Shown: positions 8,507 to 32,768, counted from the stretch's first letter. The stretch is 64,000 bases of DNA from Patescibacteria group bacterium (GCA_041645165.1 JBAZQN010000008.1:2374-66373), one strand, 5' to 3'. Translations and numbers: made by a program. Notes: generated by a model not told the origin, from the sequence alone.

Positions 8507-8523
8507 CATATTTAATTGAAAAT

Positions 8524-10171: not shown

Positions 10172-10185
10172 ATTGTTAAGAGGTC

Positions 10186-10815: not shown

Positions 10816-10830
10816 AAAGTGCGTAATGTT

Positions 10831-12609: not shown

Positions 12610-12737
12610 TGTTGAAATTTTCAAATTACAATTTCTAATTTTCAAATAATTTTCAATGTCCCAATTTTCAAACATCTGCGGCTTATGAAATTGTGACATT
12701 GATTGAAAATTGAAAATTGAAAATTGATAATTTTGAT
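12610..12737. repeat. Palindromic tandem-arm element: (AATTTTCAA)x4 ... (TTGAAAATT)x3.
   Basis: The left arm is tandem copies of a 9-10-mer and the right arm is tandem copies of its reverse complement. Lies between pilC and the giant pilin gene. Confidence 0.7.
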
Positions 12738-13835
12738 TCATATCGTCTGGGTGAGTGAATACATCGGCATGATGATAGCGACAGCCATAGCACCCACACC
12801 CGCGCCAAGGATTAAAATCAGCAGCGGTTCTATGATGGAAGGGAGGTTTTTCATTATCTGATCAACTTCCTCTTCATAAAAAAGCGCAAGTTGGGAAAGG
12901 ACATTGTCAAGTGCTCCTGATTCTTCACCCACGCGCGTGAGCTGGCTGACCACCGGCGGGAAAAGGTGGGGATATGATGAAAACACCACATGTACCGGTG
13001 ATCCTTTTTTGAGGCGTTCTGCAAGATCAAGCAGTGCTTCGCGGTAATAGATATTTTTTATTGTGCGGGACGTAATTATTGACGCCTGTACGATGGGAAT
13101 GTCTGTCGTGAGGAGCGATGAAAAGGTACGGCTTATGCGAGCTAAGTTTACTTTATGGATGATAGGACCGAAAATGGGCAAACGAAGTAACAATGTATGT
13201 AGTATATGTGTACCTAAAGCAGTTTTAGCAAAAGCACGGAAGGCGACAATAAGCAACACCAATCCAATAAGTACAAAGGGACCATTTTTCGTAGTGAAGT
13301 TACTCGTGGCGATAAGAATTCTGGTAGGGAGCGGCAGCGTCGCTTTAAATTCTGCAAAAACACTTATAAGTCTCGGGATCACAAATATCATCATGGCAGT
13401 TCCAATGCCGATCATGGCAATTATGACAATAGAAGGGTAGAGCATGGCGCCGCGCACCTTGGAGATAAGTTCGTGGTCTTTTTTCATCTGTTCGGTTACG
13501 TGCTGCAGCACTTCGTCGAGTTTTCCTGAAAGTTCTCCGCTCTCAATCATGCTGACAGTAAGATCAGGAAAAACTGAAGGATGCATCGAGAGTGCCCGTG
13601 CGAATGGCGTTCCTTTCTCTACTTGTTCGTAAATGTTGTGTATTACATAATGGAATCGTTTATGCGTAGATTGATCTGCAAGGGTCCGCAATGCCATAGC
13701 AAGAGAGAGGCCTGCCTTCACCATTACCTGGAGATTTTGTATGAAAAAGATTTTTTCTGTAAGTGAAATCGGATGATGGCGGCTTATCCACGATAAAGTG
13801 TTTTGGGGAGTTTTGTTGTAATTTTGTTCTGGCAT
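12738..13835 (-). CDS. pilC: Type IV pilus inner-membrane platform protein PilC (GspF family).
   Basis: Two T2SSF-like repeats with membrane helices. Located between pilB and the pilin genes. Confidence 0.8.
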   Translation of the reverse strand: MPEQNYNKTPQNTLSWISRHHPISLTEKIFFIQNLQVMVKAGLSLAMALRTLADQSTHKRFHYVIHNIYEQVEKGTPFARALSMHPSVFPDLTVSMIESGELSGKLDEVLQHVTEQMKKDHELISKVRGAMLYPSIVIIAMIGIGTAMMIFVIPRLISVFAEFKATLPLPTRILIATSNFTTKNGPFVLIGLVLLIVAFRAFAKTALGTHILHTLLLRLPIFGPIIHKVNLARISRTFSSLLTTDIPIVQASIITSRTIKNIYYREALLDLAERLKKGSPVHVVFSSYPHLFPPVVSQLTRVGEESGALDNVLSQLALFYEEEVDQIMKNLPSIIEPLLILILGAGVGAMAVAIIMPMYSLTQTI

Positions 13836-13856
13836 GGCGCGTCAAAATTAACAATA

Positions 13857-15590
13857 TCAATCTTTGGCAACACGGAGAAGCTCCTCGATGGTAGTGATGC
13901 CTTGCTTTGCCTTAATAAACCCGTCTTGGAACATGGTGTACATGCCTTCTTTTTTTGCGCATGCGTTTATTTCTTCAGCAGATGCCCGTTTTAAAATAAG
14001 CTCAGTGATCGCAGGTGTTATGGAGAGAACCTCATAAATGCCTATACGCCCTTTATACCCTTCCTGGTTGCATTGTTTACAGCCCTTTCCTTTCCAGAAT
14101 TCCAGCGATTCGAATCGGGTTTTAGGGGAATCAACCAATTTTTCTTTTGCAAATATTTCAATTATCGCGGAAAGGTCAAATTGGTTATTTAATTCTTGCA
14201 CCGTATTGCGATCGAGTTTTATCGGTTGTTTGCAATTTTGACAAATTTTACGCGTAAGCCGCTGCGCGAGCACCAGATTAACAGTTGAGGTAATGAGGAA
14301 AGAAGCGACTTGCATATCCTGCAGTCGTGGAAACGCGGTGGCGGCGTCGTTCGTGTGGAGTGTAGAGAGCACTAAGTGTCCTGTCATAGCTGCATTTACC
14401 GCTATATCTGCAGTTTCTGAATCTCGTATTTCACCGACCATGATGACATTGGGATCTTGGCGCAAAAAAGACCTTAATCCTGCAGCGAAGGTATAGCCTA
14501 TTTTCGGGTTTACCTGGCTCTGGTTCACTCTAGGCATCCGATATTCTATGGGGTCTTCAATGGTAGTGATATTTACATTTGGCGTATTTATAATATTGAG
14601 AATGGTATAGAGTGTTGTCGTTTTTCCGGAACCGGTAGGGCCGGTTATTAATATCATCCCATGGGGTTTGGTGATGTTGAATTTGATTTTATCAAGAGAT
14701 TTTCCGTAAAACCCGAGCTGTTCGAGCGTGAGTATCTGTGCGGATTCGTTTAAGAGCCGCAATACTATTTTTTCACCGTCAAACACGGGAATGACCGAGA
14801 CACGGAATGAAATACGGTATTCATTGGTGCTTATTTTGAATCTGCCATCCTGCGGCATTCGGTGTTCGTCGAGTTTTAAATTAGCAAGAATTTTTATGCG
14901 CGCGACTATGCCTGATTGGGTTTTTTTTGGCAATGTCATGACATCGCGCAATATGCCGTCTACGCGATATCTGACTACCACTTCTTTTTCTGTGGGTTCA
15001 ATATGGATATCAGATGCGCCTTCAAAAATGGCATATTCGAGCAGGGTATCCACAATGCGAATGATGGGAAGGTCCTGCGCGAGCTCTTTTAGTTTTTCGT
15101 GATCTTCATCATTTATTACTTCAGCTTTTGTGATTTCCTCAAATTCAGCCTTTAATGATTTATGGTATTGTTTCAGTATTTCGTGTATGTCGGTAGGCGT
15201 GGTGATGTATATTTCAATATCCAGCCCTGTGCGTTTTTTTATAAATTCAAAAGTTTGAAGATCGTCGGGGTCAAGGGTCGCCACTTTCAATGCGGTATCC
15301 GTGCGGTTGAACGCGACAATGAGATGGGAAGAAGCAATCGGTTCAGGAATGAGATTAAGAATATCTTTTCGGATATTGAGCGCGTTGAGCTTCACATAAG
15401 GATATCCTAAAAGTTCTGCCTGAATTTCAGCCAGCTGATCCTCGGTGATCAATTTTTTTTCAAGCAAAACCTGCTCTAACTGCTTATGGGATGATTCTGC
15501 CTCCTTTAATGCCGCATCCAGTTCTTTTTTTGAAGCAATTTTTCCCTTTATTATCGCTTCAAAGAGATTTTTAGATTGAGAGAGGGGCAT
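13857..15590 (-). CDS. pilB: Type IV pilus assembly ATPase PilB (GspE family).
   Basis: Walker A GPTGSGKTTTLY, Asp/His boxes, a tetracysteine motif (CKQCNQEGYKGRIGIYEV) and an N-terminal GspII_E domain. Confidence 0.9.
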   Translation of the reverse strand: MPLSQSKNLFEAIIKGKIASKKELDAALKEAESSHKQLEQVLLEKKLITEDQLAEIQAELLGYPYVKLNALNIRKDILNLIPEPIASSHLIVAFNRTDTALKVATLDPDDLQTFEFIKKRTGLDIEIYITTPTDIHEILKQYHKSLKAEFEEITKAEVINDEDHEKLKELAQDLPIIRIVDTLLEYAIFEGASDIHIEPTEKEVVVRYRVDGILRDVMTLPKKTQSGIVARIKILANLKLDEHRMPQDGRFKISTNEYRISFRVSVIPVFDGEKIVLRLLNESAQILTLEQLGFYGKSLDKIKFNITKPHGMILITGPTGSGKTTTLYTILNIINTPNVNITTIEDPIEYRMPRVNQSQVNPKIGYTFAAGLRSFLRQDPNVIMVGEIRDSETADIAVNAAMTGHLVLSTLHTNDAATAFPRLQDMQVASFLITSTVNLVLAQRLTRKICQNCKQPIKLDRNTVQELNNQFDLSAIIEIFAKEKLVDSPKTRFESLEFWKGKGCKQCNQEGYKGRIGIYEVLSITPAITELILKRASAEEINACAKKEGMYTMFQDGFIKAKQGITTIEELLRVAKD

Positions 15591-15651: not shown

Positions 15652-16038
15652 ATGCTAGTAAAACTCCCATTTATGCCACTTTTCCCCTCATTACGAAAGG
15701 ATTTATACCACCGGCTTCCATGGGTTATATGGAATGTGGCGATTTCGTTTGTTTTAAATGCGGCAACCTGGGTCTATGTGTATTTTACCATTGAGCCATC
15801 GGTAGATCCGATCCCGCTGCATATCACCGTGTATTTCGGAATAGATTTTATAGGCCCTTTTTGGTATTTTTACCTGCTTGCGGCATCAGGCACCCTCATG
15901 ACCATATTCAATGGCGGTGTGGGAAGGATGCTTTATCGCGATGAGCCAAGGCTTGCTGCGGCATTACTTACGTTCACAACGGTAATGAATGCGTTTTTGT
16001 GCGCCATCACGGTTTACCTTTCAACATTTGTGTTATGA
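15652..16038 (+). CDS. Hypothetical integral membrane protein (4 predicted TM).
   Basis: Hydrophobic profile only. Confidence 0.3.
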   Translation: MLVKLPFMPLFPSLRKDLYHRLPWVIWNVAISFVLNAATWVYVYFTIEPSVDPIPLHITVYFGIDFIGPFWYFYLLAASGTLMTIFNGGVGRMLYRDEPRLAAALLTFTTVMNAFLCAITVYLSTFVL

Positions 16039-16724
16039 GCGATCATGAGCCGTATCATTATTTTAATGAAATTTCGATTGGCCACGACTCAAGCGTTATG
16101 ATAGGGCGCAAATATGAGGAAGGTTATGTTTTTACGAGACGGGGGCCGCACATTATGCGACAGGTGCGCTCGGTAAGAGTTTCCATAGGCTCCTTTCAAT
16201 TATCAAGCGAGAATCGTCGGATCTTGAAAAACTATGCTTTCCTTAATCTCCATTATGAAGCACTGCCTTATCCAGGCTATCATTGGACAATTGGAAAAAT
16301 TGCAGTTGATTTTTATAAAAAGAAAACGGGCTCACGCGCCATGAGCGCCCAGAAAATAAAGACCCTATTCACCTCGCCTCATGAAAGCATGAATGGCGTT
16401 TTTATATATCAATGGAAACAAGTAGAACGCCCTCTCGGCTACAGCCTTCTTTTTTCATCTGCGCGTATGCTTCATTATGCGTATCCTTTTTACGACGTGG
16501 CACATGCACGCGCATTAACGCTTCCTTCCTTGGGAATGGCAATGATGCTCAAGGCGATCCTTTGGGCGCAAGAAAAAAATATGGACTATGTATATCTGGG
16601 AAGTATCCACAATGAACGCTCACTCTATAAATTTCAGTTTAAAGGAGTGGAGTGGTTTAATGGTAAAAAATGGCAGCAGGGGAAACCTGAAAAATCCCAA
16701 ATCCAAATTTCAAAGTTCAAATAA
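16035..16724 (+). CDS. Arginyl/leucyl-tRNA--protein transferase-like protein (ATE1/Bpt family, ATE_C-like).
   Basis: C-terminal DYVYLGSIHNERSLYKFQFKGVEWF resembles the ATE_C motif (YLGYYI...YK..F.P.E.L). The start is probably the internal Met at 16035. The last ~11 codons are read from a repeat element. Confidence 0.4.
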   Translation: MSDHEPYHYFNEISIGHDSSVMIGRKYEEGYVFTRRGPHIMRQVRSVRVSIGSFQLSSENRRILKNYAFLNLHYEALPYPGYHWTIGKIAVDFYKKKTGSRAMSAQKIKTLFTSPHESMNGVFIYQWKQVERPLGYSLLFSSARMLHYAYPFYDVAHARALTLPSLGMAMMLKAILWAQEKNMDYVYLGSIHNERSLYKFQFKGVEWFNGKKWQQGKPEKSQIQISKFK

Positions 16725-16810
16725 AATCCAAAATCCCAATGTCAAATTTGATATTGGACATTTGAACTTGAGATTTTATTTGATATTTGGATTTTGACAT
16801 TGGGATTTAA
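16691..16810. repeat. Palindromic tandem-arm element (AAATCCCAAT / ATTGGGATTT type).
   Basis: aaatcccaaatccaaa...atccaaaatcccaatgtcaaatttgatat | atatttggattttgacattgggattt. Long imperfect palindrome. Confidence 0.7.
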
Positions 16811-16847
16811 GCAAATAATGTAGAGAATTTTCGAGAGGATAGTTTTC

Positions 16848-18257
16848 ATGCTTATGATCGCAAAAAGACACATTCATTTTATAGGAATATGCGGCACTGC
16901 CATGGCGCCAGTCGCTAAAATGTTTTGGGATTTGGGATGGCGCGTAACTGGTTCTGACAAAGGCATTTATCCCCCTATATCGGATTATTTAAAACAGAAT
17001 AAGATTGCATATTATGTTGGATTTCATCCTGAGCGGATAGGGAATCCTGATAAGGTAGTGGTGGGGAATTATATCAGCCTTGTAAATCCTGAATTTTCTG
17101 CGATAAGGGAGCGCGGTATTCCTTATCAGTCCTACCCTGAGGCATTACGGGAATACGTAATAAAATCAAACTCAATCGTGGTTGCGGGAAGTTTTGGAAA
17201 AACCACCACGACCGCACTTCTTGCGTGGATTTGGGAATGCGCGGGGAGACGCCCTTCATTCATGGCAGGCGGAATGATGCGCAATTTTCCTAATAGCGTG
17301 CGATCAAATGATTCGTTATGGAGCATTGTAGAAGGTGACGAGTATCCGGCATGCCGATGGAATCCTGTCCCAAAATTTTCATTTTATGACCCGCATTTTT
17401 TAGTGTTAACCGGCGTGCAGTGGGATCACGCAGATATCTATACGACAGAAGAATCCTACATTGAAATGTTTAAAAAGTTGGTTGCATCGATGCCTCCCAA
17501 TGGACTCATCTGCGCGGCTTTGGACCGACCACATATGCGCGATGTTCTCAACAAGGCATCTGCACCGGTGGTATGGTACGGAAGGACTGGGAGCGGTGCA
17601 GATTGGAGCACAGAGGTGTTATATCAAAAAAAAGCAACCAAAATGACATTTTACGGACCTTCAAATGAAACAATAGGCCCGGTGAGTGTGCCTCTTTTGG
17701 GCAGTATTGCATTCGATCACTTTACCGGTGCAGTAGCGCTTGCGCGTGCTTCCGGCATTGATCAAACTGCCATCATGCAAGCGCTCACCTCGTTCCAGGG
17801 AGTATGCAGGCGGCTTGAAGTAAGGGGTGTGGTGAACAAGGTGAGCATAATAGACGACTTCGCCCATTCACCGAGCAAGGCAAAATCTGCTATTGATGCG
17901 GTGAAGCAAACATTTAATCGCGGACGCGTCATAGTCGTTTTTGAACCGAACGTAGGGAATCGGCTTCGTTCGTTAGCGCCCTCATATAGAGATGCGTTTA
18001 ATTCCGCGAATACCGTTATTGTGCCGCGTTTATCAGCAACGAAACACAATGAAAATACAGAGGCAAGGTTGGATGGCGCACAACTTGCGCAAATTATCAG
18101 TTCATCGAATACTCATATAGAGGAAGTCGTTTATATCGATGATGATATTCAGGTTGTCCAAAAGCTGCAAAAAATCGCCCAACCGGGCGACTGCATACTT
18201 TTTCTCGGCTCGCATGGATTCAGAGGGATGATCGAACAGACACTAGAGTGTCTGTAA
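16848..18257 (+). CDS. Mur ligase family protein (Mpl/MurC-like; UDP-N-acetylmuramate-peptide or L-Ala ligase).
   Basis: N-terminal HIHFIGICGTAMAPVA...VTGSD, P-loop VVAGSFGKTTTTAL and a Mur ligase middle/C-terminal domain. The ICGT motif favours Mpl. Confidence 0.7.
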   Translation: MLMIAKRHIHFIGICGTAMAPVAKMFWDLGWRVTGSDKGIYPPISDYLKQNKIAYYVGFHPERIGNPDKVVVGNYISLVNPEFSAIRERGIPYQSYPEALREYVIKSNSIVVAGSFGKTTTTALLAWIWECAGRRPSFMAGGMMRNFPNSVRSNDSLWSIVEGDEYPACRWNPVPKFSFYDPHFLVLTGVQWDHADIYTTEESYIEMFKKLVASMPPNGLICAALDRPHMRDVLNKASAPVVWYGRTGSGADWSTEVLYQKKATKMTFYGPSNETIGPVSVPLLGSIAFDHFTGAVALARASGIDQTAIMQALTSFQGVCRRLEVRGVVNKVSIIDDFAHSPSKAKSAIDAVKQTFNRGRVIVVFEPNVGNRLRSLAPSYRDAFNSANTVIVPRLSATKHNENTEARLDGAQLAQIISSSNTHIEEVVYIDDDIQVVQKLQKIAQPGDCILFLGSHGFRGMIEQTLECL

Positions 18258-18367
18258 TGCCAAAGTTCAAATTTCCAATTTCAAATTGACATGTGACATT
18301 TGTCCCGCTCCTTGAATTTGGTTATCTAAAGTATGCGGGATCCCGCTGAAGCGGGAAATTTTGAGCT
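18258..18367 (-). repeat. Same repeat family, copy B (reverse orientation).
   Basis: Reverse complement reads TCAAAATTTCCCGCTTCAGCGGGATCCCGCATACTTTAGATAACCAAATTCAAGGAGCGGGACAAATGTCAC..., collinear with copy A. Confidence 0.75.
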
Positions 18368-18386: not shown

Positions 18387-18557
18387 CTATTTCTCCTCTT
18401 CCACGATGACCGTAGTAAAATTTCCTTGCGCGTCAATTCCAGTCACTTCTAGTGTCATGCCGCACTGTTCGCATTCAACAACTTCGCCTTTGCTTAAAGC
18501 GCCACGCTCATAATCAAGCTCATTTTTGCATTCAGGGCATGTGGTATGGTAATCCAT
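18387..18557 (-). CDS. LysW-like small zinc-ribbon protein (56 aa; absent from the ORF track because it is under 60 aa).
   Basis: MDYHTTCPECKNELDYERGALSKGEVVECEQCGMTLEVTGIDAQGNFTTVIVEEEK. The CPEC...CEQC spacing and the ...LEV.G.D... pattern resemble the alpha-aminoadipate carrier protein LysW. Acidic C-terminal tail ending in EEEK (LysW ends in Glu). Confidence 0.5.
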   Translation of the reverse strand: MDYHTTCPECKNELDYERGALSKGEVVECEQCGMTLEVTGIDAQGNFTTVIVEEEK

Positions 18558-18638
18558 ATGAAATATTGTTAAATTGTTACATTGCTGTACTGTTAAGCAA
18601 TAACAGTGTAGCCATATTACAGTGTATCAATCAATCCA

Positions 18639-19586
18639 ATGAAATTGCAACCCACCCCCCTTCAGAAATGCATTTTTCCTCTCCTCCCGGAAAACTGTAT
18701 GGGTAGAATAATATATATCAAGCGAGAGGACTTGAATCCTTCCGGTTCCCATAAAGATAGGGCGCTTTTTCCCTATGTCGATAAATTAGTGAAGAAGGGG
18801 GAGGAGGCATTTTGCCTAAGCTCTTCGGGCAACTTTGCCGTTTCTGCCGCGTATTATGCGCACCATCATACACAGGTTCAATTCCATCTTTTTCTTCCTC
18901 CAACGATTTCCCAAGAAAAAAAAGACAGATTAAACGAATACAAGACTGACAACGTAATTATTCACTGGTCAAAATTGGCAAAAAGCGAAGCAGGTCAATT
19001 TAGCCGTAAAACACATATACGTCTATTACGAGGGTCGAAGGACGATTGCTTACTTGAAGGGTACTATGAGTTAGTAAGAGAATTAGTAGAACAGACTAAA
19101 GGTAAAGGAGGGAGTGTTTTTATGGCTGTATCTTCAGGAACAATGTTGGTAGGGTTATGGGAGGGATTTCAAAATAATCCAAAATCCAAAATCTCCCGCC
19201 ATAGCGGGATCTCGCATATCTTAGAGAATCAGATTCAAGGTGCGGGACAAATACCCAATTTTTATATTGTGCAATCGACGAGGGTGCATCCTATCGCGAG
19301 TGAGTTTGATAGCGATTTTACGCCAACAAAATCTTCCATAGCATCAGCCATTGTGGATCGCGTCGCAAATCGTAAAGATCAGGTGGTCAACGCGGTTAAA
19401 GAAAGCCACGGATCGGGATGGATCGTATCTGATGAAGAAATTACAATTGCGATGAAAAAGTTAGCCGGAGTTCTGCATGAAAACGTGAGTCCGGAAAGCG
19501 CCATGTCGCTCGCGGGTTTACAAAAGGCTTGTTCAAAAGGTTTTCATGTAAAGAAACCGATTGTATTAATTTTTACTGGGAAATAG
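18639..19586 (+). CDS. Fold-type II PLP-dependent enzyme (Trp-synthase-beta / Cys-synthase / Thr-synthase superfamily).
   Basis: TPL...IYIKREDLNPSGSHKDRA (PLP-Lys motif) and the glycine loop AVSSGTMLVGL. Contains an in-frame ~69-nt repeat-element insertion after the NNPKSKI segment. Confidence 0.7.
   Translation: MKLQPTPLQKCIFPLLPENCMGRIIYIKREDLNPSGSHKDRALFPYVDKLVKKGEEAFCLSSSGNFAVSAAYYAHHHTQVQFHLFLPPTISQEKKDRLNEYKTDNVIIHWSKLAKSEAGQFSRKTHIRLLRGSKDDCLLEGYYELVRELVEQTKGKGGSVFMAVSSGTMLVGLWEGFQNNPKSKISRHSGISHILENQIQGAGQIPNFYIVQSTRVHPIASEFDSDFTPTKSSIASAIVDRVANRKDQVVNAVKESHGSGWIVSDEEITIAMKKLAGVLHENVSPESAMSLAGLQKACSKGFHVKKPIVLIFTGK
19182..19262 (+). repeat. Same repeat family, copy C, located inside the PLP-enzyme CDS and read in-frame.
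   Basis: TCCAAAATCTCCCGCCATAGCGGGATCTCGCATATCTTAGAGAATCAGATTCAAGGTGCGGGACAAATACCCAAT is collinear with copies A and B. Encodes ...SKISRHSGISHILENQIQGAGQIPN. Confidence 0.7.
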
Positions 19587-19771
19587 TATGCCCAGTTATA
19601 CAATATCCAAGAGGGAGGCTCATACCTTTAGATGGGAAATTAATAGATTTCTAAGAATCAGTTTGAGAGCATCGAAAAACGCTTTCATTGCCTCCCTCAT
19701 CAAACGCCAAACGTGATCTTCAAGCTTTGTTATGAATCAATTCTCCAAGGTCGCATTTATTTCATGGATTT

Positions 19772-21163
19772 ATGCAATGCCAGCCCCGTTTGGCGTTGGA
19801 TATTGATATTCTGGGTATGGCGTTTTTCTATATTACTCGCGACATTGAGCGCGCAGCAGGATTTTTGGGCATACGTAATGATTATTATGTGATTACCTAT
19901 CCAAGTCCGCTGGCAGAGGCAATAAAGCACAAATTTAGTAAGCAAATCATTTTAATAAATCAAGTTACAAGCAACAAGAAACAAGTTACAAAATTGAGAG
20001 TGCGAAGTACGCTCGCATTGATAAGGAGTGAATATGTGCAGGAAAAGGTTCATGAGTTGCCAGATAAAGAGCAACCGAATATTTTAGTGTTTAAAAATTC
20101 TCATCAGATTGAAGAAGAGTGCGAAAAATTAAATTGGAAGCTGCTAAATCCTTCCGCAGAACTTTCTGGGAAGATTGAAAATAAGATTAGTCAATATAGT
20201 TGGCTTAGAGAAGAAAAGAGCGCTTCACTTGAGGTATTGACTCCTATAAGCATTATTGGCGAGGTTGGTCAATTTGAATATGAAGATTTAATGCGCCAGT
20301 TTGGAAAAGATTTTATTATGCAATATAACATCGGCCATACTGGGTCTGGAACGAAACGTATTATCAATGAACAATTGTGGAAAAATGAGGTTGTAAGGTT
20401 TCCCAAACGTATAGTAAAGATTTCGGAGTATATTAAGGGTAGGATGTATACTATCAATGCATGTGTGATAGGGGATAATAATGTAGTATGTGGAGGCACT
20501 AGCGAACAGATCACAGGTTTGAAGGAGCTCACAGGCAATCAGCTAGCGACAGTTGGGAATGATTGGAACAGCGTGAGCGAAGAGACGCATAATAAGGTAA
20601 AAAAAATTGCCGTGGAAATAGGCAAATATATGATGCAGAACGGATGGAGGGGATTATTTGGCATTGACGTGATCATTGATGCGGCCGCAGACCGGGCATA
20701 TCTTATAGAAATAAACGCACGGCAGCCGGCATCGGTTAGCTTAGAGTCGCAATTACAAAATGAAAACGACGAAATAAATATTATGGAATGGCATGTAAAT
20801 ACGTTATGTGGTAATAACGCCCCCCAACCCCCTCTTATATTAAGAGGGAGAGATTGGAGAGTTACAGGATCTCAATTATTTTTCCGCAATATTGAAAATC
20901 ATCCAGTTTCGTTGCAAAATGAATTTTTGCCGGGTCGCTACAAGGCAGACAAACAAGGACATGAGTTTATTGAAAAAGCAACAAGTGTGGCTGAAACGCA
21001 AAAAGGTGAAATATTTGCTTTTTCGGTTTCTCAAAATGAAAAGGTAAAACCAGGCGGAGAACTCTTGAGAATACAGTCAAAACAAGGTATAGTTGACACG
21101 TTTGGTAAAAATTATCTCGATGTTATGAGAAGTATTCGTAAAGAAATACAGATTGAAATATGA
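19772..21163 (+). CDS. ATP-grasp family ligase.
   Basis: GWRGLFGIDVIIDAAADRAYLIEINARQ is the ATP-grasp C-terminal signature. The upstream central domain carries a Lys-rich ATP-binding region. The start codon is uncertain (the ORF track gives the longest version). Confidence 0.65.
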   Translation: MQCQPRLALDIDILGMAFFYITRDIERAAGFLGIRNDYYVITYPSPLAEAIKHKFSKQIILINQVTSNKKQVTKLRVRSTLALIRSEYVQEKVHELPDKEQPNILVFKNSHQIEEECEKLNWKLLNPSAELSGKIENKISQYSWLREEKSASLEVLTPISIIGEVGQFEYEDLMRQFGKDFIMQYNIGHTGSGTKRIINEQLWKNEVVRFPKRIVKISEYIKGRMYTINACVIGDNNVVCGGTSEQITGLKELTGNQLATVGNDWNSVSEETHNKVKKIAVEIGKYMMQNGWRGLFGIDVIIDAAADRAYLIEINARQPASVSLESQLQNENDEINIMEWHVNTLCGNNAPQPPLILRGRDWRVTGSQLFFRNIENHPVSLQNEFLPGRYKADKQGHEFIEKATSVAETQKGEIFAFSVSQNEKVKPGGELLRIQSKQGIVDTFGKNYLDVMRSIRKEIQIEI

Positions 21164-21912
21164 TCTTCACATTGCCAGAATTCTGCCAAAATGTAATGAA
21201 CGCCTATGAATCTCTTGATTTCGGTCTTAGGCGTCATGTGAGGTGTCCTTATTACATGAATGCAGGGGTTCGGAAACGCGCAGCATCTGCGGTCGAATCG
21301 GGAAAGGGATCGCCGGAAGAGATTATAAAAGAAGTGAAATCATGCGCGCTGATTAAGAAAATTGATTTAGCCAAACTTTCAGGAAATGAAATTAGGCAAT
21401 TGATGGTTGACGAACGCATAGGCATTGATTGTTCGGGATTGGTCTCCCATATTCTTGATCCATGGGTAAAGGAAGCATCCCATACCACACTTGGACAGTC
21501 ATTGCTGCGCACGCAATATTCATTAAAAAGAAAATTATTATTACATTTTCGCCCTTTTCAGAATATTGACGTCACATTGCTTACCTCCCTGGAAAATGCG
21601 CATGGTGTTTTGCTCACTGATATTAAGCCTGGCGATTTGATACGCACGCGCGGGGGGAAACACGTGCTTCTTATTTATGAAGTTGAAAAAGACCAAGAGC
21701 GTATCATTTCCTTTTCCTTTGTTCATTCAAGCGACCGTTTTGGAGATAACTCGGGAATACAGCGAGGAAAAGTTCTCTTTACGAATTCCAGGGGTGAGCT
21801 TCATGAACAACAATGGCAGGAATCATTGCCAGACCAGAAACCTGCGTTAGAAGGTTGGCTTGAAGAAAGAGAAAAAAACGGGATTTTTAGACTGAAATGC
21901 GTGGCTTTATGA
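21160..21912 (+). CDS. Papain-fold (NlpC/P60- or CHAP-like) cysteine peptidase/amidase.
   Basis: IGIDCSGLVSHIL (catalytic Cys context) and a downstream GDLIRTRGGKHVLLIYEV (His). Overlaps the ATP-grasp stop by 4 nt and mraY by 16 nt (operon). Confidence 0.45.
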   Translation: MIFTLPEFCQNVMNAYESLDFGLRRHVRCPYYMNAGVRKRAASAVESGKGSPEEIIKEVKSCALIKKIDLAKLSGNEIRQLMVDERIGIDCSGLVSHILDPWVKEASHTTLGQSLLRTQYSLKRKLLLHFRPFQNIDVTLLTSLENAHGVLLTDIKPGDLIRTRGGKHVLLIYEVEKDQERIISFSFVHSSDRFGDNSGIQRGKVLFTNSRGELHEQQWQESLPDQKPALEGWLEEREKNGIFRLKCVAL

Positions 21913-23027
21913 CATCTTTGAATATTATTGTAATAAGTTTAGGTTATCTCATTCTTGCCTGCGTCGTCGCGTTTGCGTGGGCGCCGTTGTTAACCACGAT
22001 CCTGTACCGTTGGAAAATATTGCGTACAGGCGACCACAGGTTTGCCATCCCGCTTCCCGGACGCCAAGCAAAACACGGGACTCCTATCATGGGAGGATTA
22101 TTGGTGGTGGTCACCGTGGCGGCGTTAAGCTTCTTATTTAATTGGAACCAGCGTTTCACGTGGGTTCCTATTGGCGTGATGCTTCTCTCTAGCGCGCTGG
22201 GAGGCATTGATGACATATTGAATATTTATGGAAGCAAACGGCTCATGCGATCCCTTGAGCATACGATGACTCTCGCGCGCGTCCATCGTGATTGGTGGAT
22301 GAGATGGTATTACCGCCTTTCCATCCCATGGGTTGCCTATAAGCGTTTCTTTTTTCACATGGGCTCTTATCCGGGGAAGGGGATACAAGCGCATGAAAAA
22401 ATATTGTTTCAATTCATTGCAGGTGCGATTACTGCATGGTGGATCTACGCAAAGCTTGGTCCTGAATGGAAAGCCATTTGGTTGCCATGGAGCGGAGAGC
22501 TTTCATTGGGGATACTTCTCGTTCCCCTCATCATTCTTACGGTTATGGCAACGGCTAATGCGGTTAATATTGCCGATGGGCTTGACGGTTTGGCGGGAGG
22601 TACGCTGCTCACTGCGTTTGGCGGCTTGCTTATGCTCTCATGGATACAAGGGAACGTGGCATTCGCCATCCTCAATGCCACGGTGATAGGAAGCCTCTTT
22701 ACGTATACCTATTTTAATATCAAACCTGCGCGGTTCCAGATGGGTGACGTGGGATCATTGGGCCTTGGTGCGCTGTTGGCAGTTATGAGTATCGCGCAAA
22801 ACCGCATTGCGGTGCTGCCGTTGTTCGGATTTATTTTTTTTATAGAGCTCGCAAGTGTTATTATCCAATCAATTGGCAAGCGCATTCTCAACAAACGGAT
22901 ATTTATTCTTGCCCCTCTCCATCATCATTTTGAAGCACGCGGCTGGAGCGAAGAAAAAATTGTGATGCGCGCATGGGTGCTGAATGCCATCGCAGTTATG
23001 ATCGGGATATGGGTAGCGTTACATTGA
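21897..23027 (+). CDS. mraY: Phospho-N-acetylmuramoyl-pentapeptide transferase MraY.
   Basis: NAVNIADGLDGLAGG, FQMGDVGSLGLGALLA and HHHFE are GT4 MraY/WecA motifs. About 10 TM helices. Ends with tandem stops TGA-TAA. Confidence 0.85.
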   Translation: MRGFMTSLNIIVISLGYLILACVVAFAWAPLLTTILYRWKILRTGDHRFAIPLPGRQAKHGTPIMGGLLVVVTVAALSFLFNWNQRFTWVPIGVMLLSSALGGIDDILNIYGSKRLMRSLEHTMTLARVHRDWWMRWYYRLSIPWVAYKRFFFHMGSYPGKGIQAHEKILFQFIAGAITAWWIYAKLGPEWKAIWLPWSGELSLGILLVPLIILTVMATANAVNIADGLDGLAGGTLLTAFGGLLMLSWIQGNVAFAILNATVIGSLFTYTYFNIKPARFQMGDVGSLGLGALLAVMSIAQNRIAVLPLFGFIFFIELASVIIQSIGKRILNKRIFILAPLHHHFEARGWSEEKIVMRAWVLNAIAVMIGIWVALH

Positions 23028-23029
23028 TA

Positions 23030-23133
23030 AATTCCAAATCCCAATATCCAATTCCCAATAAAGCTCCAAGCCCCAATTTCCAAAATTGATTATTTGACAT
23101 TTGGATTTTGAAATTGGGATTTATTCACGAAAT
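23030..23133. repeat. Palindromic tandem-arm element (AAATCCCAAT / ATTGGGATTT type) between mraY and ftsW.
   Basis: ccaaatcccaatatccaattcccaat...ccaaaattgattatttgacatttggattttgaaattgggattt. The 3' end is nearly identical to the 16691-16810 element. Confidence 0.7.
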
Positions 23134-24237
23134 ATGCCTCTCTCCTCAACCGTGCATGCCGTTGATTACAAACTCCTAGGACTTATATTATTACTGACCA
23201 TTTTTGGCCTCGTGATGCTCGCCTCTGCTTCAAACGTGCTTGGTTTTGAACGTTTTGGCGATACTTACTATTTCACCAAACAGCAGCTTTTACATGTAGG
23301 TGTTGGGTTGATCGCGATGCTGGTAAGCATAAAAATTTCACCTGCGCTATGGCAAAAATTGGCTTTCCCCGCATTTGCGGTGACGTTAGTATTGCTCGTA
23401 TTAGTGTTCATCCCCGGTATTGGCATCACCATAAATAATGCAAAAAGCTGGATCAATGTCGGCGTGAGTACCTTACAGCCGTCAGAAATTGCCAAACTTA
23501 CGTTTCTCCTCTACATATGCGTCTGGTTTAAAAAACGTAAAACACATCTTACCAGCACGCTCTACGGCCTTTTGCCTTTTTTGACCCTTCTGGGGCTGCT
23601 TGCAGGATTGGTGTTCCTGCAACCAGATCCAGGCACGGTAGCAATAATCATTATTATGTCACTCGGAGTATTTTATGGCGCAGGAGCCAAATATACCCAT
23701 ATATTTTCTCTTACAATTATTGCAGTTATGCTTATTGGTTCTGCTATCCTTATTTCACCTTATCGTAAAGACAGGGTTGCGGTGTTTTTAAACCCTGAGA
23801 GAGACCCTACCGGCGTTGGGTACCACGTAAATCAATCCATGATTGCGATTGGCTCCGGCGGTTGGTGGGGTTTGGGATTAGGAAAATCTCGCCAAAAATT
23901 CAGCTATTTGCCGGAATCAGCAGGCGACTCGATTTTTGCGGTTATTGGTGAAGAAGGCGGATTTATCGTATCTGTGGGATTGATAATTCTTTTAGGGATA
24001 TTGATCTATAGACTATTTGATATAGCATCAAGGGTGCCGGATGAATTTAGCCGTTACTTTGTGTTGGGCGTTATTTTTTGGATTGGGGTCCAGTCATTTG
24101 TAAATATGGCCGCGATGATAGGAATTGTTCCGCTCACCGGTCTTCCTTTGCCCCTGGTGAGTTTTGGGGGGACCGCGGTACTCAGTACACTTACTGCGTT
24201 GGGTGTTTGTCTAAGCATATCTCGCACTACTGCATAA
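23101..24237 (+). CDS. ftsW: SEDS-family peptidoglycan polymerase FtsW/RodA.
   Basis: GSGGWWGLGLGKSRQKFSYLPESAGDSIFAVIGEEGGF is the SEDS signature. The real start is probably around 23134 (MPLSSTV...). Confidence 0.85.
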   Translation: MDFEIGIYSRNMPLSSTVHAVDYKLLGLILLLTIFGLVMLASASNVLGFERFGDTYYFTKQQLLHVGVGLIAMLVSIKISPALWQKLAFPAFAVTLVLLVLVFIPGIGITINNAKSWINVGVSTLQPSEIAKLTFLLYICVWFKKRKTHLTSTLYGLLPFLTLLGLLAGLVFLQPDPGTVAIIIIMSLGVFYGAGAKYTHIFSLTIIAVMLIGSAILISPYRKDRVAVFLNPERDPTGVGYHVNQSMIAIGSGGWWGLGLGKSRQKFSYLPESAGDSIFAVIGEEGGFIVSVGLIILLGILIYRLFDIASRVPDEFSRYFVLGVIFWIGVQSFVNMAAMIGIVPLTGLPLPLVSFGGTAVLSTLTALGVCLSISRTTA

Positions 24238-24244
24238 TAATATT

Positions 24245-25324
24245 ATGAAGATACGTCCAATTATTTTTTCAGGAGGAGGAACCCTTGGATCAGTCATGCC
24301 GTTGGTCAGCGTTATCGAACAATTCAAAAAGCGCTATTCAAATGAAATATGTTGGTGCGGCACGTATAAAGGGCCTGAGCGAAACGTGCTTCGTTCGCTG
24401 TCAATCCATTATACGCCTTTTTTAGGCGGTAAATTCCGCAGGTATATTTCATGGAAAACATTCATTGATCCGCTCTTCATAGTAATGGGGTTTTTCCAAT
24501 CGGTGTTTTTTTTCTTATTCAAAAAACCTGTTGCGATAGTTTCTGCGGGAAGCTTTATTTCAGTGCCCCTCCTGTGGGTAGCGTGGTTTTTTCAAATCCC
24601 CACCATTGCATTACAGCTTGACGTTAAGCTTGGTTTGGCGAATCGTCTGGTACTCCCATTCCTTTCGCAATTTGGGTCTCTGTTCCCTTTGCCCCAACAT
24701 TCCGTCCCCATAGCATGCCCTGTGCGGAGTGCCATTCTCGCACTATCCAGTGAGAGGGATAAAATGAAAAAGGAAGCCCTGCTCCGATTTTCATTTGCCA
24801 CAAAGCCCACCATTCTCGTCTTAGGCGGAGGAATTGGCGCTGAACCGCTGAACGCACTTGTGCAGGAATCAATCCATAGCCTCCTTCTCACGTTTAACGT
24901 TTTACACAGTACAGGAACATCAATTAGCCAGAAGGGTAAGCAATTATCCGGATATCGAGCACAGCCATTTTTTGGCGATGATCTGATCTTTGCTTACGCG
25001 GCCGCAGACATAATTATCAGCCGTGCGGGCATGGGCACCATTACTGAAGCCGCCGCTCTCAAAGCGCCGCTCATCCTTATACCGCTTCCACATTCTCCAC
25101 AGGAGCACAATGCTGTACTGCTTGCCAAGTCCGGCGCTGCAGTGGTCCTGCATCAAAATAATTTGACATCTTCCATGTTTATTAATACCCTCACGAAACT
25201 ATTAGCTGATCAAGTTTCCCTTAATGCGCTAGGTGCTTCTCTTCACAGAGCTATTCCGGTCGATGACGGTTCATCGGTGATTTCACTGATAAATAATTGT
25301 TCACCAAAACTTATAACACGATAA
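24245..25324 (+). CDS. murG: UDP-GlcNAc:undecaprenyl-PP-MurNAc-pentapeptide GlcNAc transferase MurG.
   Basis: GGGTLGSVMPL N-terminal G-loop and the C-terminal GT28 domain (RAGMGTITEAAALKAPLILIPLPHS). Confidence 0.85.
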   Translation: MKIRPIIFSGGGTLGSVMPLVSVIEQFKKRYSNEICWCGTYKGPERNVLRSLSIHYTPFLGGKFRRYISWKTFIDPLFIVMGFFQSVFFFLFKKPVAIVSAGSFISVPLLWVAWFFQIPTIALQLDVKLGLANRLVLPFLSQFGSLFPLPQHSVPIACPVRSAILALSSERDKMKKEALLRFSFATKPTILVLGGGIGAEPLNALVQESIHSLLLTFNVLHSTGTSISQKGKQLSGYRAQPFFGDDLIFAYAAADIIISRAGMGTITEAAALKAPLILIPLPHSPQEHNAVLLAKSGAAVVLHQNNLTSSMFINTLTKLLADQVSLNALGASLHRAIPVDDGSSVISLINNCSPKLITR

Positions 25325-25441
25325 TTCACAATATTGGAACTTCAATCTTTCGCGTTATTCTGCGTCATCATCAGCGTTCTTCCGCATCTATGAGGCATAG
25401 AAGCAGATGCACGCAGAAGTAAACTAAAGTATGTAATTTAT

Positions 25442-26854
25442 ATGGTAATGCATAAAAAACAAGTTGATTTTTCTAAAGTGTCCAACATATATTTTATCGG
25501 CATAGGCGACGAATTTTGTGCTGCAATAGCCGAATGTCTGCATCATTGGGGGAAAAAAGTCAGCGGTTCCGATACAGTGGCAAACGCGCGCACTGCGCAT
25601 CTTTCCCAAATAGGAATAATGTGCCATATTAGTCCGTCACAATCCTTTGTCCCCGTACACACTGATATGGTCATTTTTTCACCGCGTGCGCATACGCACC
25701 CTGATGTCCTTAACGCCAAGCACTGGGGATTGCCTTTACACACTCCCTATGAATGTATCGGATTCATGAGTACGATCCGCACCACCATAGCAGTATCCGG
25801 CTGCCATGGCAAAACTACGGTGGCGGCTTACATAGGTTCGCTGCTTGAAAAAGCGGGTCGCGACCCAAGCGTCGTGGTAAGGACCGATGTTGACGCCTGG
25901 AAAAGCAATGTGCGCACCGGTTTCGGCAGTTATTTTGTGGTAGAAGCCGATGAGAATAAGAAGCATTTCCTTTCGCTCGTTCCCTCGATAGCGTTGTTCC
26001 TGAACATAGAACCGGATCATTTGGACTATTTTGAAAATATACAAAATATCATCAATGCATACCACGCCTTTGCGAAAAATGTAAAACGCGATGGCGCGGT
26101 TATCGCCAATGGCGATGATGAAAATATCATAGCTGCACTTAAAAAAGTTAATAACCGCATTATTTGGTTTGGCCGGCGTGAAGGCGTCGACGTGCGAGCG
26201 TTGAACGTGCAGTCGACGCGAGGACGCACTTCTTTTTCCGTGCACATCAAAAAGGGTGAGCACGATGAAGAATACCATATGGAACTGCCAGGCGAACACC
26301 AGCTTACTAATGCGCTTGCCGTTATTGCCACCGCTCATTATCTGGAGATTCCTTTTAATCTTGCACGTGAAATACTCCTTTCCTACCATGGCGCCAATAG
26401 GCATGTAAGCCTTATAGGAAAGGCAAATGGCATCGATGTTATAGATGACGCAGCAGATTATCCATCAACCATTAAAACTGTTCTTAAAGGCATTAAAGAA
26501 CAATACCCGGATAAGCCTCTTTGGTGCATATTCCAAGCCTATGGCAAAAAACGCACAGACTTTATGCAGGATGAGCTCGCACAAGCTTTTACCCATGCAG
26601 ACCATGTGATTCTTCGCCCTGTGAAAATGAACGATGAGGAAAGAGGCGGGGTTTCGTCTTCTCATAACCTAATCCACGCGGTCAAGGCGTATCATCCATT
26701 GGTAACCGACGGTCAAAATGACTATACATTGGCAAAAATTCTGGCTCAAATTCCTTCTAGTGCCGTATTGGTAACCATGGGCGCAGAACCGGTGAGAAGC
26801 GTAGGCGAGCATTTCTTAAAGCTTAGGCAGAAAAAACACAGTGTAGATACTTGA
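25442..26854 (+). CDS. murC: UDP-N-acetylmuramate--L-alanine ligase MurC (Mur ligase family).
   Basis: IYFIGIGDEF...SGSD N-terminal domain and P-loop AVSGCHGKTTVAAY. Position after murG. Confidence 0.75.
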   Translation: MVMHKKQVDFSKVSNIYFIGIGDEFCAAIAECLHHWGKKVSGSDTVANARTAHLSQIGIMCHISPSQSFVPVHTDMVIFSPRAHTHPDVLNAKHWGLPLHTPYECIGFMSTIRTTIAVSGCHGKTTVAAYIGSLLEKAGRDPSVVVRTDVDAWKSNVRTGFGSYFVVEADENKKHFLSLVPSIALFLNIEPDHLDYFENIQNIINAYHAFAKNVKRDGAVIANGDDENIIAALKKVNNRIIWFGRREGVDVRALNVQSTRGRTSFSVHIKKGEHDEEYHMELPGEHQLTNALAVIATAHYLEIPFNLAREILLSYHGANRHVSLIGKANGIDVIDDAADYPSTIKTVLKGIKEQYPDKPLWCIFQAYGKKRTDFMQDELAQAFTHADHVILRPVKMNDEERGGVSSSHNLIHAVKAYHPLVTDGQNDYTLAKILAQIPSSAVLVTMGAEPVRSVGEHFLKLRQKKHSVDT

Positions 26855-26891: not shown

Positions 26892-28301
26892 TTGTCGAAT
26901 CATAACTTATACGATATGAAAAAAAGAAATTTGCGGAAATTTTGGAAATTGGGGAATGCCGACTATGCCACGAAGCATTTTGACGTGAATAAAGATGGCG
27001 AGCTTATCGTGCGCGAGGGTAACTATCAATATAATGTCAAAGATTTGTGCGATCGTTTTGGCACATCATTGGAGCTGTTATTTCCCCACGTGATTGAAGA
27101 GCGTCTTAACGAAACATTTGACGCGTTCCATGCGGCGATGCGAGCGCAGCGCTATCGGGGAAAATTTTTTTTCCATTACCCTATGAAGGCGAACCAAACG
27201 AAAGAATTTATACTTCCCGCTGTTTCAGAAGGCGCCCATCTTGAAACGAGCTCGGCGAATGAGCTCTGGATTGTCAAACGTATGTGGGAACAGGAGCAAT
27301 TTTCCACTAAAATAAAGGTATTGTGCAACGGTCCGAAAACCAATAAATATTTATCTTTGATTGAGGAATTGAAGCTCAAGAATTTGGATATTGTTCCCAT
27401 CGTAGAAAATTATTGGGAGTTTGAATATCTCCGTAGCTACCGCGGCGATATTGGCATCCGATGGGCACCTACCACCCGTATACGCTCACATTGGGACAAG
27501 CCGACCGATCAATTCGGTTTTCCCACTAAGGATTTGATCGGGCTTGGGAAGATAAGAAATCTCAAATTAATGAGTTACCACGCTGCCTCACAGGTAACGA
27601 GCGCACAAGATTTGATTACGCTTGCACGCGAGGCAATGGGGGTATACCTGCGGGTGAAGAAGAATAATCCAATGCTCGATGCGCTGAATATTGGAGGAGG
27701 GTTTGCCGTGCCGTATGAAAAGAAGAAAAAAATATACACTGTACAACAAGTAGCTCCGCGTATCGTACGGACGATTAAGTCTGCCGCAGAGCGCGGTGGG
27801 GTGCCACATCCGGATATCATTGTCGAGTGGGGACGGTATCTTATGGCACCAGCACAAATCACTGTTTATAAAATCATCGCCGAGAAAGAGATAGCCATCA
27901 ACGGTCATTCCAGGGATTCAAAACACTGGTACTTTATTGACGGAAGCATTATGAATGATTTACCGGATACCTGGGGAGTAAACCAGCGTTGGCATGTAAT
28001 TCCGATTAATTATATGGATGCAGTAAAATTATCACGCGTCTGGCTATCCGGATCAAGCTGTGATTCGGACGATAAGTACACCAATGGCGGTGAATGCGTT
28101 CGTTTACCGCGCCTGCAGGATCTGCGAGAAGGTGAGCCATTGTATGTAGCGGTGCTTGATACGGGAGCCTACCAGGATGCACTGGCGAGCCTTCATTGTA
28201 TGCTTTCAAGCCCTGAAAAACTCGTAATCCAAAACGGGGTTATCACTGTTGCGTGCAAACGCGATACGCCAGAAGAAGTGGGGATGAAATTTGGGTGGTA
28301 G
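26892..28301 (+). CDS. Fold-type III PLP-dependent decarboxylase (Orn/DAP/Arg decarboxylase family); arginine decarboxylase suspected from context.
   Basis: HYPMKANQ (PLP-Lys, cf. YAVKAN), NIGGGF and SGSSCDSDD (cf. the CGPTCDSxD substrate loop). Neighbours are agmatine-pathway genes. Confidence 0.6.
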   Translation: MSNHNLYDMKKRNLRKFWKLGNADYATKHFDVNKDGELIVREGNYQYNVKDLCDRFGTSLELLFPHVIEERLNETFDAFHAAMRAQRYRGKFFFHYPMKANQTKEFILPAVSEGAHLETSSANELWIVKRMWEQEQFSTKIKVLCNGPKTNKYLSLIEELKLKNLDIVPIVENYWEFEYLRSYRGDIGIRWAPTTRIRSHWDKPTDQFGFPTKDLIGLGKIRNLKLMSYHAASQVTSAQDLITLAREAMGVYLRVKKNNPMLDALNIGGGFAVPYEKKKKIYTVQQVAPRIVRTIKSAAERGGVPHPDIIVEWGRYLMAPAQITVYKIIAEKEIAINGHSRDSKHWYFIDGSIMNDLPDTWGVNQRWHVIPINYMDAVKLSRVWLSGSSCDSDDKYTNGGECVRLPRLQDLREGEPLYVAVLDTGAYQDALASLHCMLSSPEKLVIQNGVITVACKRDTPEEVGMKFGW

Positions 28302-28357
28302 TGCGCTCGGTTTTCATACCATCATGGCGTGTCATAAAAAAGAACAGTAGAGGAAAT

Positions 28358-29014: not shown

Positions 29015-29134
29015 GTTGGAATTATAACAATGTGTGATAATTTTGTCAATATTGTTATAAAATTTGCTTAATATAGTGAATCCTTATAAACTGTGCGTAG
29101 TTCTTTAAAATATGTTTAATTTAAGGAGATTTTC

Positions 29135-29737: not shown

Positions 29738-29859
29738 GTCTTTTAGACCTCGCTGGTATTACATTTTCAGGTAAGCAATTTTCCCCTAGATTTTGAAATT
29801 GATGAAGATTTTTGTTATACTGAGACTATCATTTGTTTAAACAATAATACAGAGGCCAT

Positions 29860-31119: not shown

Positions 31120-31191
31120 GAAACCCTAAAATAATGTTATGTCTATTTCTCTTGACCTTTCACCACCGCAATATTCCGACAGAAGTGGATT

Positions 31192-32758: not shown

Positions 32759-32768
32759 TGTGACAAAC

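Follow-up and report, generated by a model that had tools for sequence, protein, structure and literature searches.

The closest described counterparts of the system treated here are the LysW/ArgW carrier proteins of Thermus, Sulfolobus and Thermococcus, termed AmCP in Streptomyces. These are acidic CxxC...CxxC zinc ribbons of about 55 residues with an acidic C-terminal tail, which are co-encoded with an ATP-grasp ligase and a hydrolase and are served by a pyridoxal phosphate (PLP) enzyme of the pathway. A second precedent is the CysO-CysM-Mec+ system of Mycobacterium tuberculosis, in which a small carrier protein supplies its C-terminus as the nucleophile to a fold-type-II PLP enzyme, before a protease frees the new amino acid; CysO itself is a ubiquitin-like beta-grasp protein with a GG-thiocarboxylate, activated by adenylation. 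Herein, we describe a stretch of DNA of 64,000 nucleotides from the metagenome-assembled genome of a Patescibacteria group bacterium (GCA_041645165.1, JBAZQN010000008.1:2374-66373; hereafter the window, to which coordinates refer unless a locus label is given), where a LysW-like zinc-ribbon mini-protein ending in lysine is encoded beside a PLP enzyme, an ATP-grasp ligase and an amidase with the NlpC/P60 papain-like fold.

These four genes form the lineage-specific core of a peptidoglycan-precursor block of seven genes, which comprises the ATP-grasp ligase, the NlpC/P60 amidase, MraY, an aminoacyl-tRNA-protein-transferase-like (ATE-like) protein, a MurC/Mpl-like ligase, the mini-protein and the PLP enzyme, and which is conserved across the sampled lineages of Patescibacteria. 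Gene content, folds, the invariance of E54 and the terminal K56 of the mini-protein, synteny and natural gene fusions were observed directly, and they are read below, tentatively, as the parts of a carrier cycle. No published description of the block was found in the literature, and the arrangement is thus apparently undescribed, as had been supposed in an earlier note on this DNA, generated by a model from the sequence alone. All four core open reading frames (ORFs) were found where that note had placed them:

18387-18557, minus strand: LysW-like zinc-ribbon mini-protein, 56 aa, acidic (ORF, Pfam PF21344)
18558-18638, no strand: divergent spacer between the mini-protein and PLP enzyme genes, 81 bp, AT-rich (read from the sequence)
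18639-19586, plus strand: fold-type-II PLP enzyme (PALP), 315 aa (Pfam PALP, 140 bits)
19772-21163, plus strand: ATP-grasp carboxylate-amine ligase, 463 aa (Pfam ATP-grasp_3)
21160-21912, plus strand: cytoplasmic NlpC/P60 papain-fold amidase, 250 aa (fold and catalytic residues)

The Zinc-Ribbon Mini-Protein and Its C-Terminal Tail

The mini-protein, whose sequence is MDYHTTCPECKNELDYERGALSKGEVVECEQCGMTLEVTGIDAQGNFTTVIVEEEK, is composed of CPEC, 18 further residues, CEQC and an acidic tail VEEEK with a terminal Lys. It matches Pfam PF21344 (Zn_ribbon_LysW) with 36.3 bits, above the gathering cut-off of 27, and its best relative in the PDB is Thermus LysW (3wwl, E=3.8e-6) over residues 6-43, which span the motif quoted in the earlier note, so that its assignment to the LysW-type zinc ribbons is borne out. 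The same cannot be said of membership in LysW proper, since the lysW model TIGR01206 (30.1 bits against a cut-off of 53.2) and the NCBIfam LysW model NF041070 (30.9 bits against 75) are not reached, the tail ends in E-x-K rather than EDWGE, and no lysZ, lysY, lysJ or lysK accompanies the gene. By these matches, the mini-protein is a LysW-type zinc ribbon and not LysW itself.

E-x-K forms the C-terminus of 56 of the 56 mini-proteins from loci found through the ATP-grasp ligase, and of all 120 mini-proteins listed from a second set (at least 120 loci), whose degenerate DNA seed pattern itself demands E-x-K; the ATP-grasp-seeded set is the unbiased sample of tails. Over these 56 and 120 tails the consensus reads [VIATLM]-[DE]-E-x-K, chiefly VDEGK or VEEEK. 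In an alignment of 30 diverse members, only the columns C7, C10, E28, C29, C32, G33, E54 and K56 are invariant, and because the zinc cysteines, E54 and K56 are the sole invariants besides E28 and G33, E54 and the terminal K56 are constrained as tightly as the metal site. When the alignment is anchored at the C-terminus, E-D-W-G-E of LysW corresponds to V-D-E-G-K, and the position of the substrate-bearing Glu holds Lys.

When 1.8 billion representative proteins were searched exhaustively with a profile, 61 short proteins with an E-x-K end were recovered, which are distinct both from canonical LysW (EDWGE) and from the archaeal forms with long acidic tails; such a search was needed, as a word-indexed homologue search with the mini-protein gave five close matches only. 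No informative fusion of the mini-protein was found in the fusion search. Contrary to the earlier note, the mini-ORF is annotated, being present in GenBank as the hypothetical protein MFA4873040.1. The public names of the four core proteins are generic ('hypothetical protein', 'PLP-dependent lyase/thiolase', 'ATP-grasp domain-containing protein'), and the IMG label of one member of the mini-protein cluster, 'lysine biosynthesis protein LysW', is misleading.

The 81-bp spacer, which is presumed to be the shared promoter/operator region of the divergent genes, contains the inverted repeat CTGTTA-N5-TAACAG as well as ACAGTGTA in two copies, which may be an operator; a promoter scan of the spacer returned no enrichment.

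Conservation of the Gene Neighbourhood

GTDB species representatives were scanned with an alignment of the ATP-grasp ligase, which yielded 387 relatives, the closest being a Candidatus Uhrbacteria metagenome-assembled genome (MAG); loci were taken from 80 of the 387, and the related loci are labelled L001 onward. By record label they are overwhelmingly Patescibacteria, together with some third-party MAGs under the generic label 'uncultured Gammaproteobacteria/Saccharibacteria'. Among the six-frame ORFs of the 88 loci, jackhmmer detected the NlpC/P60-like protein in 84, MraY in 72, the ATE-like protein in 61, the MurC/Mpl-like ligase in 58, and the mini-protein and the PLP enzyme in 56 each. 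Absences fall mostly on incomplete contigs, and among the 45 loci that extend 8.5 kb or more past the ATP-grasp gene on its downstream side, 42 contain both the mini-protein and the PLP gene. The two genes are divergent in 51 of 53 pairs, with a median spacer of about 58 bp.

An independent seed, the degenerate DNA pattern of the mini-protein applied to metagenome contigs, returned at least 120 loci. Among the matches listed, the PLP gene accompanies the mini-protein in 113 of 120; the flank is long enough in 75, and in 71 of these the PLP gene adjoins the mini-protein gene in divergent orientation. In the loci with 6.5 kb or more on the far side, MraY and the ATE-like gene are each found in 16 of 17 loci, NlpC/P60 in 14 and the ATP-grasp gene in 13. 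The neighbourhood is therefore conserved by two independent seeds (42/45 and 71/75), far more widely than the earlier note could know.

The commonest order is murB (minus), then ATP-grasp, NlpC/P60, mraY, ATE-like and Mur ligase (plus), mini-protein (minus), PLP enzyme (plus) and a murD-like gene (minus). In the lineage of the window the two halves of this order are swapped, an arrangement shared by contigs whose ATP-grasp homologues are 68%, 53% and 44% identical, while in more distant contigs, from Parcubacteria and WS6, the genes stay associated but are rearranged.

Natural fusions join parts of the block, which argues that they belong together. The ATP-grasp and NlpC/P60 proteins are fused in five species (653-709 aa, confirmed by Pfam), and the ATE-like protein is fused to the Mur ligase in two (680-713 aa; L031:5620-7761 and L065:13221-15263). 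In addition, about ten loci, including L006:8001-9614, encode an ATP-grasp protein with a C-terminal NUDIX domain whose REx2EE box is intact. A different C-terminal extension of the ATP-grasp protein was seen in L087:781-2607; it contains a ParB/sulfiredoxin-like 'DGLHR' motif, which Pfam did not detect. In one lineage, the PLP enzyme and ATP-grasp genes are separated by a radical-SAM gene of opposite strand (L003:5813-6715, L004:382-1284).

The Three Enzymes Encoded with the Mini-Protein

The ATP-grasp ligase matches PF02655 with 35.7 bits (cut-off 23.2), and its EINARQPAS motif, in which E313, N315 and R317 are invariant, corresponds to the E-x-N-x-R Mg/ATP motif. Searching the PDB with the single ATP-grasp or the single amidase sequence gave nothing, and with a profile of either only marginal matches. 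The fold comparison ranked PurK (24.6) and PylC (22.8) highest, followed by L-amino-acid ligases (21.7), BesA (21.3), Ddl (about 18), LysX and ArgX (17.4 and 16.5) and RimK (16). The protein thus falls in the PurK/PylC/L-amino-acid-ligase branch, whose members join small-molecule carboxylates to amines, and since its fold is matched better by that branch it is neither LysX-like nor a Ddl orthologue, the two identities between which the earlier note had sought to decide. A LysX/RimK-like identity was rejected on this ranking; a Ddl identity was rejected because the protein also fails the Ddl family models and the comparison with the E. coli DdlB sequence.

The PLP enzyme belongs to the PALP family (PF00291), with the PLP lysine K39 in GSHK and an SSSGN loop; K39, the substrate loop (S61-N65) and the glycine-rich phosphate loop (S165-T168) are invariant or nearly so in the family alignment. 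Its best score against the ThrC models (NCBIfam equivalogs) is 96.9 bits, short of the cut-off of 358. The family profile matches ThrC in the PDB best (5e-26), before Ser dehydratase (1e-18), Asp racemase (8e-16) and Ser racemase (7e-15). The phosphate-binding Arg of ThrC (N-S-x-N-P-x-R) is not conserved in position, and another Arg, R131, is invariant two residues ahead of a conserved Ser. By these residues and scores, the enzyme appears to be derived from threonine synthase and not to be ThrC itself.

The amidase displays the NlpC/P60 papain-like fold with an intact Cys/His pair (catalytic C91, H168 and H188), as the earlier note had recognized, and bears a family-specific N-terminal extension, CPYY.N...GKG.P.EI, and no signal peptide. 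Pfam PF00877 is not reached by the protein of the window (13.9 bits against a cut-off of 23) and scores 21.3 bits in the fusion protein of L044. The protein is a divergent NlpC/P60 member, whose nearest fold is that of a putative gamma-D-Glu-L-diamino-acid endopeptidase.

Gene Layout and Flanking Cell-Wall Genes

The remaining block genes and neighbouring features of the window are as follows:

15999-16724, plus strand: ATE_C/Bpt-like (ATE-like) protein (Pfam ATE_C)
16848-18257, plus strand: MurC/Mpl-like Mur ligase, convergent with the mini-protein gene (NCBIfam murC/mpl)
18335-18355, no strand: GC hairpins between the convergent Mur ligase and mini-protein genes (read from the sequence)
21897-23027, plus strand: mraY (ORF; Glycos_transf_4 assigned to orthologues)
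23101-26854, plus strand: ftsW, murG and a second murC-like ligase, which extend the operon in this lineage (ORFs; murC 296.7 bits)

The earlier note had described the three-gene operon as translationally coupled, with overlaps of 4 and 16 nt, to mraY-ftsW-murG. The ATP-grasp and NlpC/P60 genes indeed share ATGA at 21160-21163, and the amidase and mraY genes overlap by 16 nt (ATG at 21897) or 4 nt (ATG at 21909); the PLP and ATP-grasp genes are not coupled in the window because a gap of 186 nt separates them. mraY is followed by ftsW, murG, the murC-like ligase and a SpeA-like decarboxylase gene, and the order ftsW, murG, murC-like ligase recurs in L001-L004 and L008. The hairpins at 18335-18355, GCGGG-AT-CCCGC and CCCGC-TGAA-GCGGG, overlap one another and are possibly a bidirectional terminator; a terminator scan raised no flag at this site.

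As jackhmmer searches with E. coli MurC, MurD, MurE and MurF lumped all Mur ligases into one profile, NCBIfam models were used for classification instead. The ligase at 16848-18257, which directly adjoins the mini-protein gene in nearly all architectures, scores 284.8 bits with murC and 250.2 bits with mpl, both under the cut-offs, while the second murC-like ligase scores 296.7 against 138 bits. The ATE-like protein matches ATE_C with 26.3 bits (cut-off 25) and the NCBIfam arginyltransferase model with 5.5e-11, under its cut-off; its family profile found no informative match in the PDB. Its gene always lies ahead of that of the MurC/Mpl-like ligase (15999-18257 in the window). This pairing, together with the fusion of the two, suggests that the first stem-peptide ligation is coupled to a step that depends on tRNA.

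The earlier note had also proposed that the PLP enzyme, the ATP-grasp ligase and the amidase stand in for a missing murF/ddl step. The large ORFs of the window, which covers only 64 kb of the genome, include neither ddl nor murD, murE or murF. In other genomes, genes of this kind stand next to the block. In L027 (Dojkabacteria, WS6) a true MurE (408 bits) and a MurF-like ligase adjoin it (L027:14222-17756); the MurE has EDPR where the DAP-type (diaminopimelic acid) enzyme has DNPR, and the meso-DAP ligase models score above the L-Lys model, which hints, on scores and motif, at a DAP-type residue at position 3. In Parcubacteria-type loci, the ligase flanking the PLP gene is MurD-like, and in L017 a canonical alanine racemase (Alr) lies 2.6 kb from mraY. 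Because MurE, a MurF-like ligase and Alr adjoin the block in other genomes, it is not a simple replacement of murF or alr, and the stand-in proposal is weakened. Motif scans of the loci for Ddl, MurI and DapA were empty, one Alr being found, and E. coli DdlB had no match in about 3.3 Mb of block-containing DNA, which shows only that ddl is absent from the block. Van/Ddl-type ligase matches have been reported in some genomes of the candidate phyla radiation (CPR) by a survey (PMC8651080).

Proposed Carrier Cycle and Rival Explanations

Our preferred account, held tentatively and at a little under an even chance, is a cycle built on a LysW-type zinc-ribbon carrier, whose invariant C-terminal lysine is the reactive group and which feeds wall precursor synthesis. 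We infer that the tail is loaded covalently, which enzymes touch it, and of what kind the substrate and product are. The acidic mini-protein (pI 4.2) would dock on its partner enzymes, among which the PLP enzyme (pI 9.2) and the amidase (pI 8.6) are basic, a charge contrast that we count in favour of carrier docking, and would offer them the tail (D/E)-E-x-K-COOH. The ATP-grasp ligase would activate a carboxylate as an acyl-phosphate and build an amide involving K56, the likeliest target being the lysine epsilon-amine (compare PylC, which acts on free lysine), so that the alpha-amino group of the tethered residue would stay free. Subsequently, the ThrC-derived PLP enzyme would transform the tethered residue; alternatively, the tail-lysine amine might serve as the nucleophile in a beta-replacement like that of CysM/CysO or of SbnA, which carries out beta-replacement with an amine nucleophile. 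The NlpC/P60 amidase would finally free the product and restore the carrier, and the product, perhaps a building block of the D- or diamino type or else a branch residue, would be consumed by the flanking Mur ligases and MraY. Since amide-forming and amide-cleaving steps are paired in such a cycle, a fusion of ATP-grasp and NlpC/P60 would be expected. Moreover, Patescibacteria have no de novo amino-acid synthesis and keep the peptidoglycan pathway (PMC9530719), which gives a private building-block route a rationale. The non-canonical carrier pathway put forward in the earlier note accordingly survives, strengthened by the invariant terminal Lys and by the ATP-grasp+NlpC/P60 fusions, albeit with a chemistry other than that of LysX and LysW.

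A polarity-inverted form of LysW can also be imagined and is, in our estimation, unlikely. LysW binds the amine of its substrate through the gamma-carboxylate of its terminal Glu; here the mini-protein would carry carboxyl or alkyl groups, its C-terminal Lys being loaded through the epsilon-amine or itself converted and set free, with the alpha-amine masked by the protein and a defined building block as product. The ATP-grasp ligase would load or recharge the carrier and NlpC/P60 would release the product, while the PLP enzyme might either invert a side-chain-tethered Glu or Asp from L to D or convert the tail Lys by beta-replacement into a DAP-like diamino-dicarboxylic acid.

Several observations weigh against a covalent carrier cycle. 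The tail past the last predicted strand amounts to 4-5 residues and is shorter than that of LysW, and to our knowledge fold-type-II PLP enzymes with protein-tethered substrates are rare. In L021 and L061 the ATP-grasp/NlpC pair is present and the vicinity has neither the mini-protein nor the PLP gene. Which enzyme touches the mini-protein cannot be told from synteny of the block as a whole; the genes closest to that of the mini-protein encode the PLP enzyme and the Mur ligase, and the ATP-grasp gene is not among them. Furthermore, the fusions of ATP-grasp with NUDIX suggest a nucleotide-linked substrate instead, e.g., UDP-MurNAc-peptide.

The catalytically intact NUDIX partner would suit another explanation, possible yet on balance somewhat unlikely, in which the enzymes tailor soluble precursors and the zinc-ribbon protein is only an accessory: a non-covalent subunit, a regulator or an acceptor mimic, E-x-K resembling the Glu-Lys-COOH of the tripeptide. 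The ATP-grasp ligase would then either extend the stem peptide by a (D-)amino acid or make a dipeptide for a Mur ligase, the PLP enzyme would supply an unusual or D-amino acid, and NlpC/P60 would trim or proof-read; the ligase would resemble the Enterococcus D-aspartate ligase, which is encoded in an operon with a racemase, or Ddl and the L-amino-acid ligases. The matches of the PLP family to Asp and Ser racemases and its SSGN loop, the interleaving of the block with murB, mraY, murC-like and murD-like genes, and the rank of L-amino-acid ligases among the top ATP-grasp fold matches all speak for it, but it leaves both the conservation of E54/K56 at the level of zinc ligands and the use of a LysW-type fold unexplained and offers no clear role for the ATP-grasp+amidase fusion. 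Salvage, in which a cytoplasmic YkfC-like NlpC/P60 enzyme would cut imported, host-derived wall peptides, the ATP-grasp and ATE-like proteins would rebuild them and the Mpl-like ligase would reattach them to UDP-MurNAc, is regarded as improbable. No transporter is conserved in the block, the known recycling pathways have no place for the mini-protein or the PLP enzyme, and in most Parcubacteria-type loci the ligase is the only MurC-like gene near murB/murD and may be plain MurC; on the other side stand the endopeptidase-like fold of the amidase, the unusually high mpl score relative to murC of the ligase adjoining the mini-protein (250/285, compared with 138/297 for the second MurC), the fusion of the ATE-like domain to that ligase, and the suitability of salvage for auxotrophic episymbionts, Patescibacteria being without amino-acid synthesis (PMC9530719).

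Two further explanations were rejected. That the genes form a canonical LysW/ArgW carrier pathway for lysine or arginine synthesis, as the Pfam LysW-domain match, the best PDB match and the IMG name might suggest, is very improbable given scores far under the TIGR01206 and NF041070 cut-offs, a terminal Lys instead of the substrate-carrying Glu, an ATP-grasp ligase outside the LysX/RimK branch, and the absence of lysZ/Y/J/K from about 200 loci. The view that the ORF arose by chance, or that unrelated genes merely happen to lie side by side, has only the small size of the ORF in its favour and is refuted by invariant functional residues, a gene order recovered from two independent seeds and natural fusions, so that its probability is next to nil.

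Other Features of the Window

Directly 3' of murC lies a polyamine gene set (26892-34710), which encodes a SpeA-like decarboxylase, a deoxyhypusine-synthase-like protein, a CN-hydrolase (N-carbamoylputrescine-amidase-like) and an agmatine deiminase; the SpeA-like gene still adjoins murC in L001-L004. The window also encodes an L,D-transpeptidase (YkuD) that bears FG-GAP repeats and, next to a DUF11 surface protein, a sortase (39616-40968, 43963-46243); both would fit a Gram-positive-like wall in which a diamino-acid acceptor is required. Type IV pili are represented by PilM, a PilC-like T2SSF protein, the PilB ATPase and a large pilin-like protein that has CarboxypepD_reg domains, and type IV secretion by a coupling protein (7370-15590, 49222-51207), genes for type IV pili and secretion being common in episymbiotic Patescibacteria. 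The SufB/D core protein (33-1604) contains a LAGLIDADG_3 homing-endonuclease domain at residues 146-228, which suggests an intein. Finally, the ORF at 61068-63304 combines a ROK-family domain with the first part of 3-dehydroquinate synthase, the remainder of which is found in an overlapping ORF of another frame; either the gene is frameshifted or split, or the assembly is in error.

Implications

Patescibacteria (CPR), which are ultra-small bacteria, constitute a large share of bacterial diversity and are almost uncultured. A four- or five-gene set that lies between murB, mraY, murC and murD in hundreds of their species is apparently unstudied, and because it is conserved among mur genes on this scale, it suggests that the CPR precursor pathway has a step missing from textbook bacteria. 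If the lysine-tailed covalent carrier is real, LysW-type carrier chemistry would reach beyond lysine and arginine synthesis into cell-wall synthesis with its reactive group reversed, and covalent use of the lysine tail, if shown, could be categorically new chemistry. For work on the CPR cell wall, the block may offer a target or marker that is specific to the lineage.

Comparison with Known Systems

Single parts of the block resemble several described enzymes. Glutathionylspermidine synthetase/amidase (GspSA) likewise unites an ATP-grasp ligase and an amidase in one protein, whereas its domain order is reversed, its substrates are unrelated and it works without a carrier protein. YkfC and related gamma-D-glutamyl-L-diamino-acid endopeptidases differ from the amidase described here, which stays below the Pfam cut-off and has its own N-terminal domain. 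LdmS, the L-Asp-L-Met ligase of S. aureus, and other L-amino-acid ligases show very weak similarity to the ATP-grasp ligase (18.8 bits), and their context and partners differ. PylC, which is only 12% identical to it, uses free L-lysine and 3-methyl-D-ornithine as substrates.

With regard to the carrier systems, the CysO system has neither an ATP-grasp enzyme nor a link to the cell wall. From LysW/ArgW the system differs as follows: the LysW tail EDWGE with its substrate-bearing Glu is replaced by E-x-K with Lys at that position; the ATP-grasp ligase is of the LysX/RimK type there and of the PurK/PylC/L-amino-acid-ligase branch here; the hydrolase is the M20 protein LysK there and an NlpC/P60 protein here; and the PLP enzyme is a fold-type-I aminotransferase there and of fold type II here. 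Neither the window nor the roughly 200 related loci yielded a homologue of LysX, LysZ, LysY, LysJ or LysK, and, in contrast with the LysW/ArgW genes, the block described here lies in the mur/mraY cluster and has been seen only in Patescibacteria.

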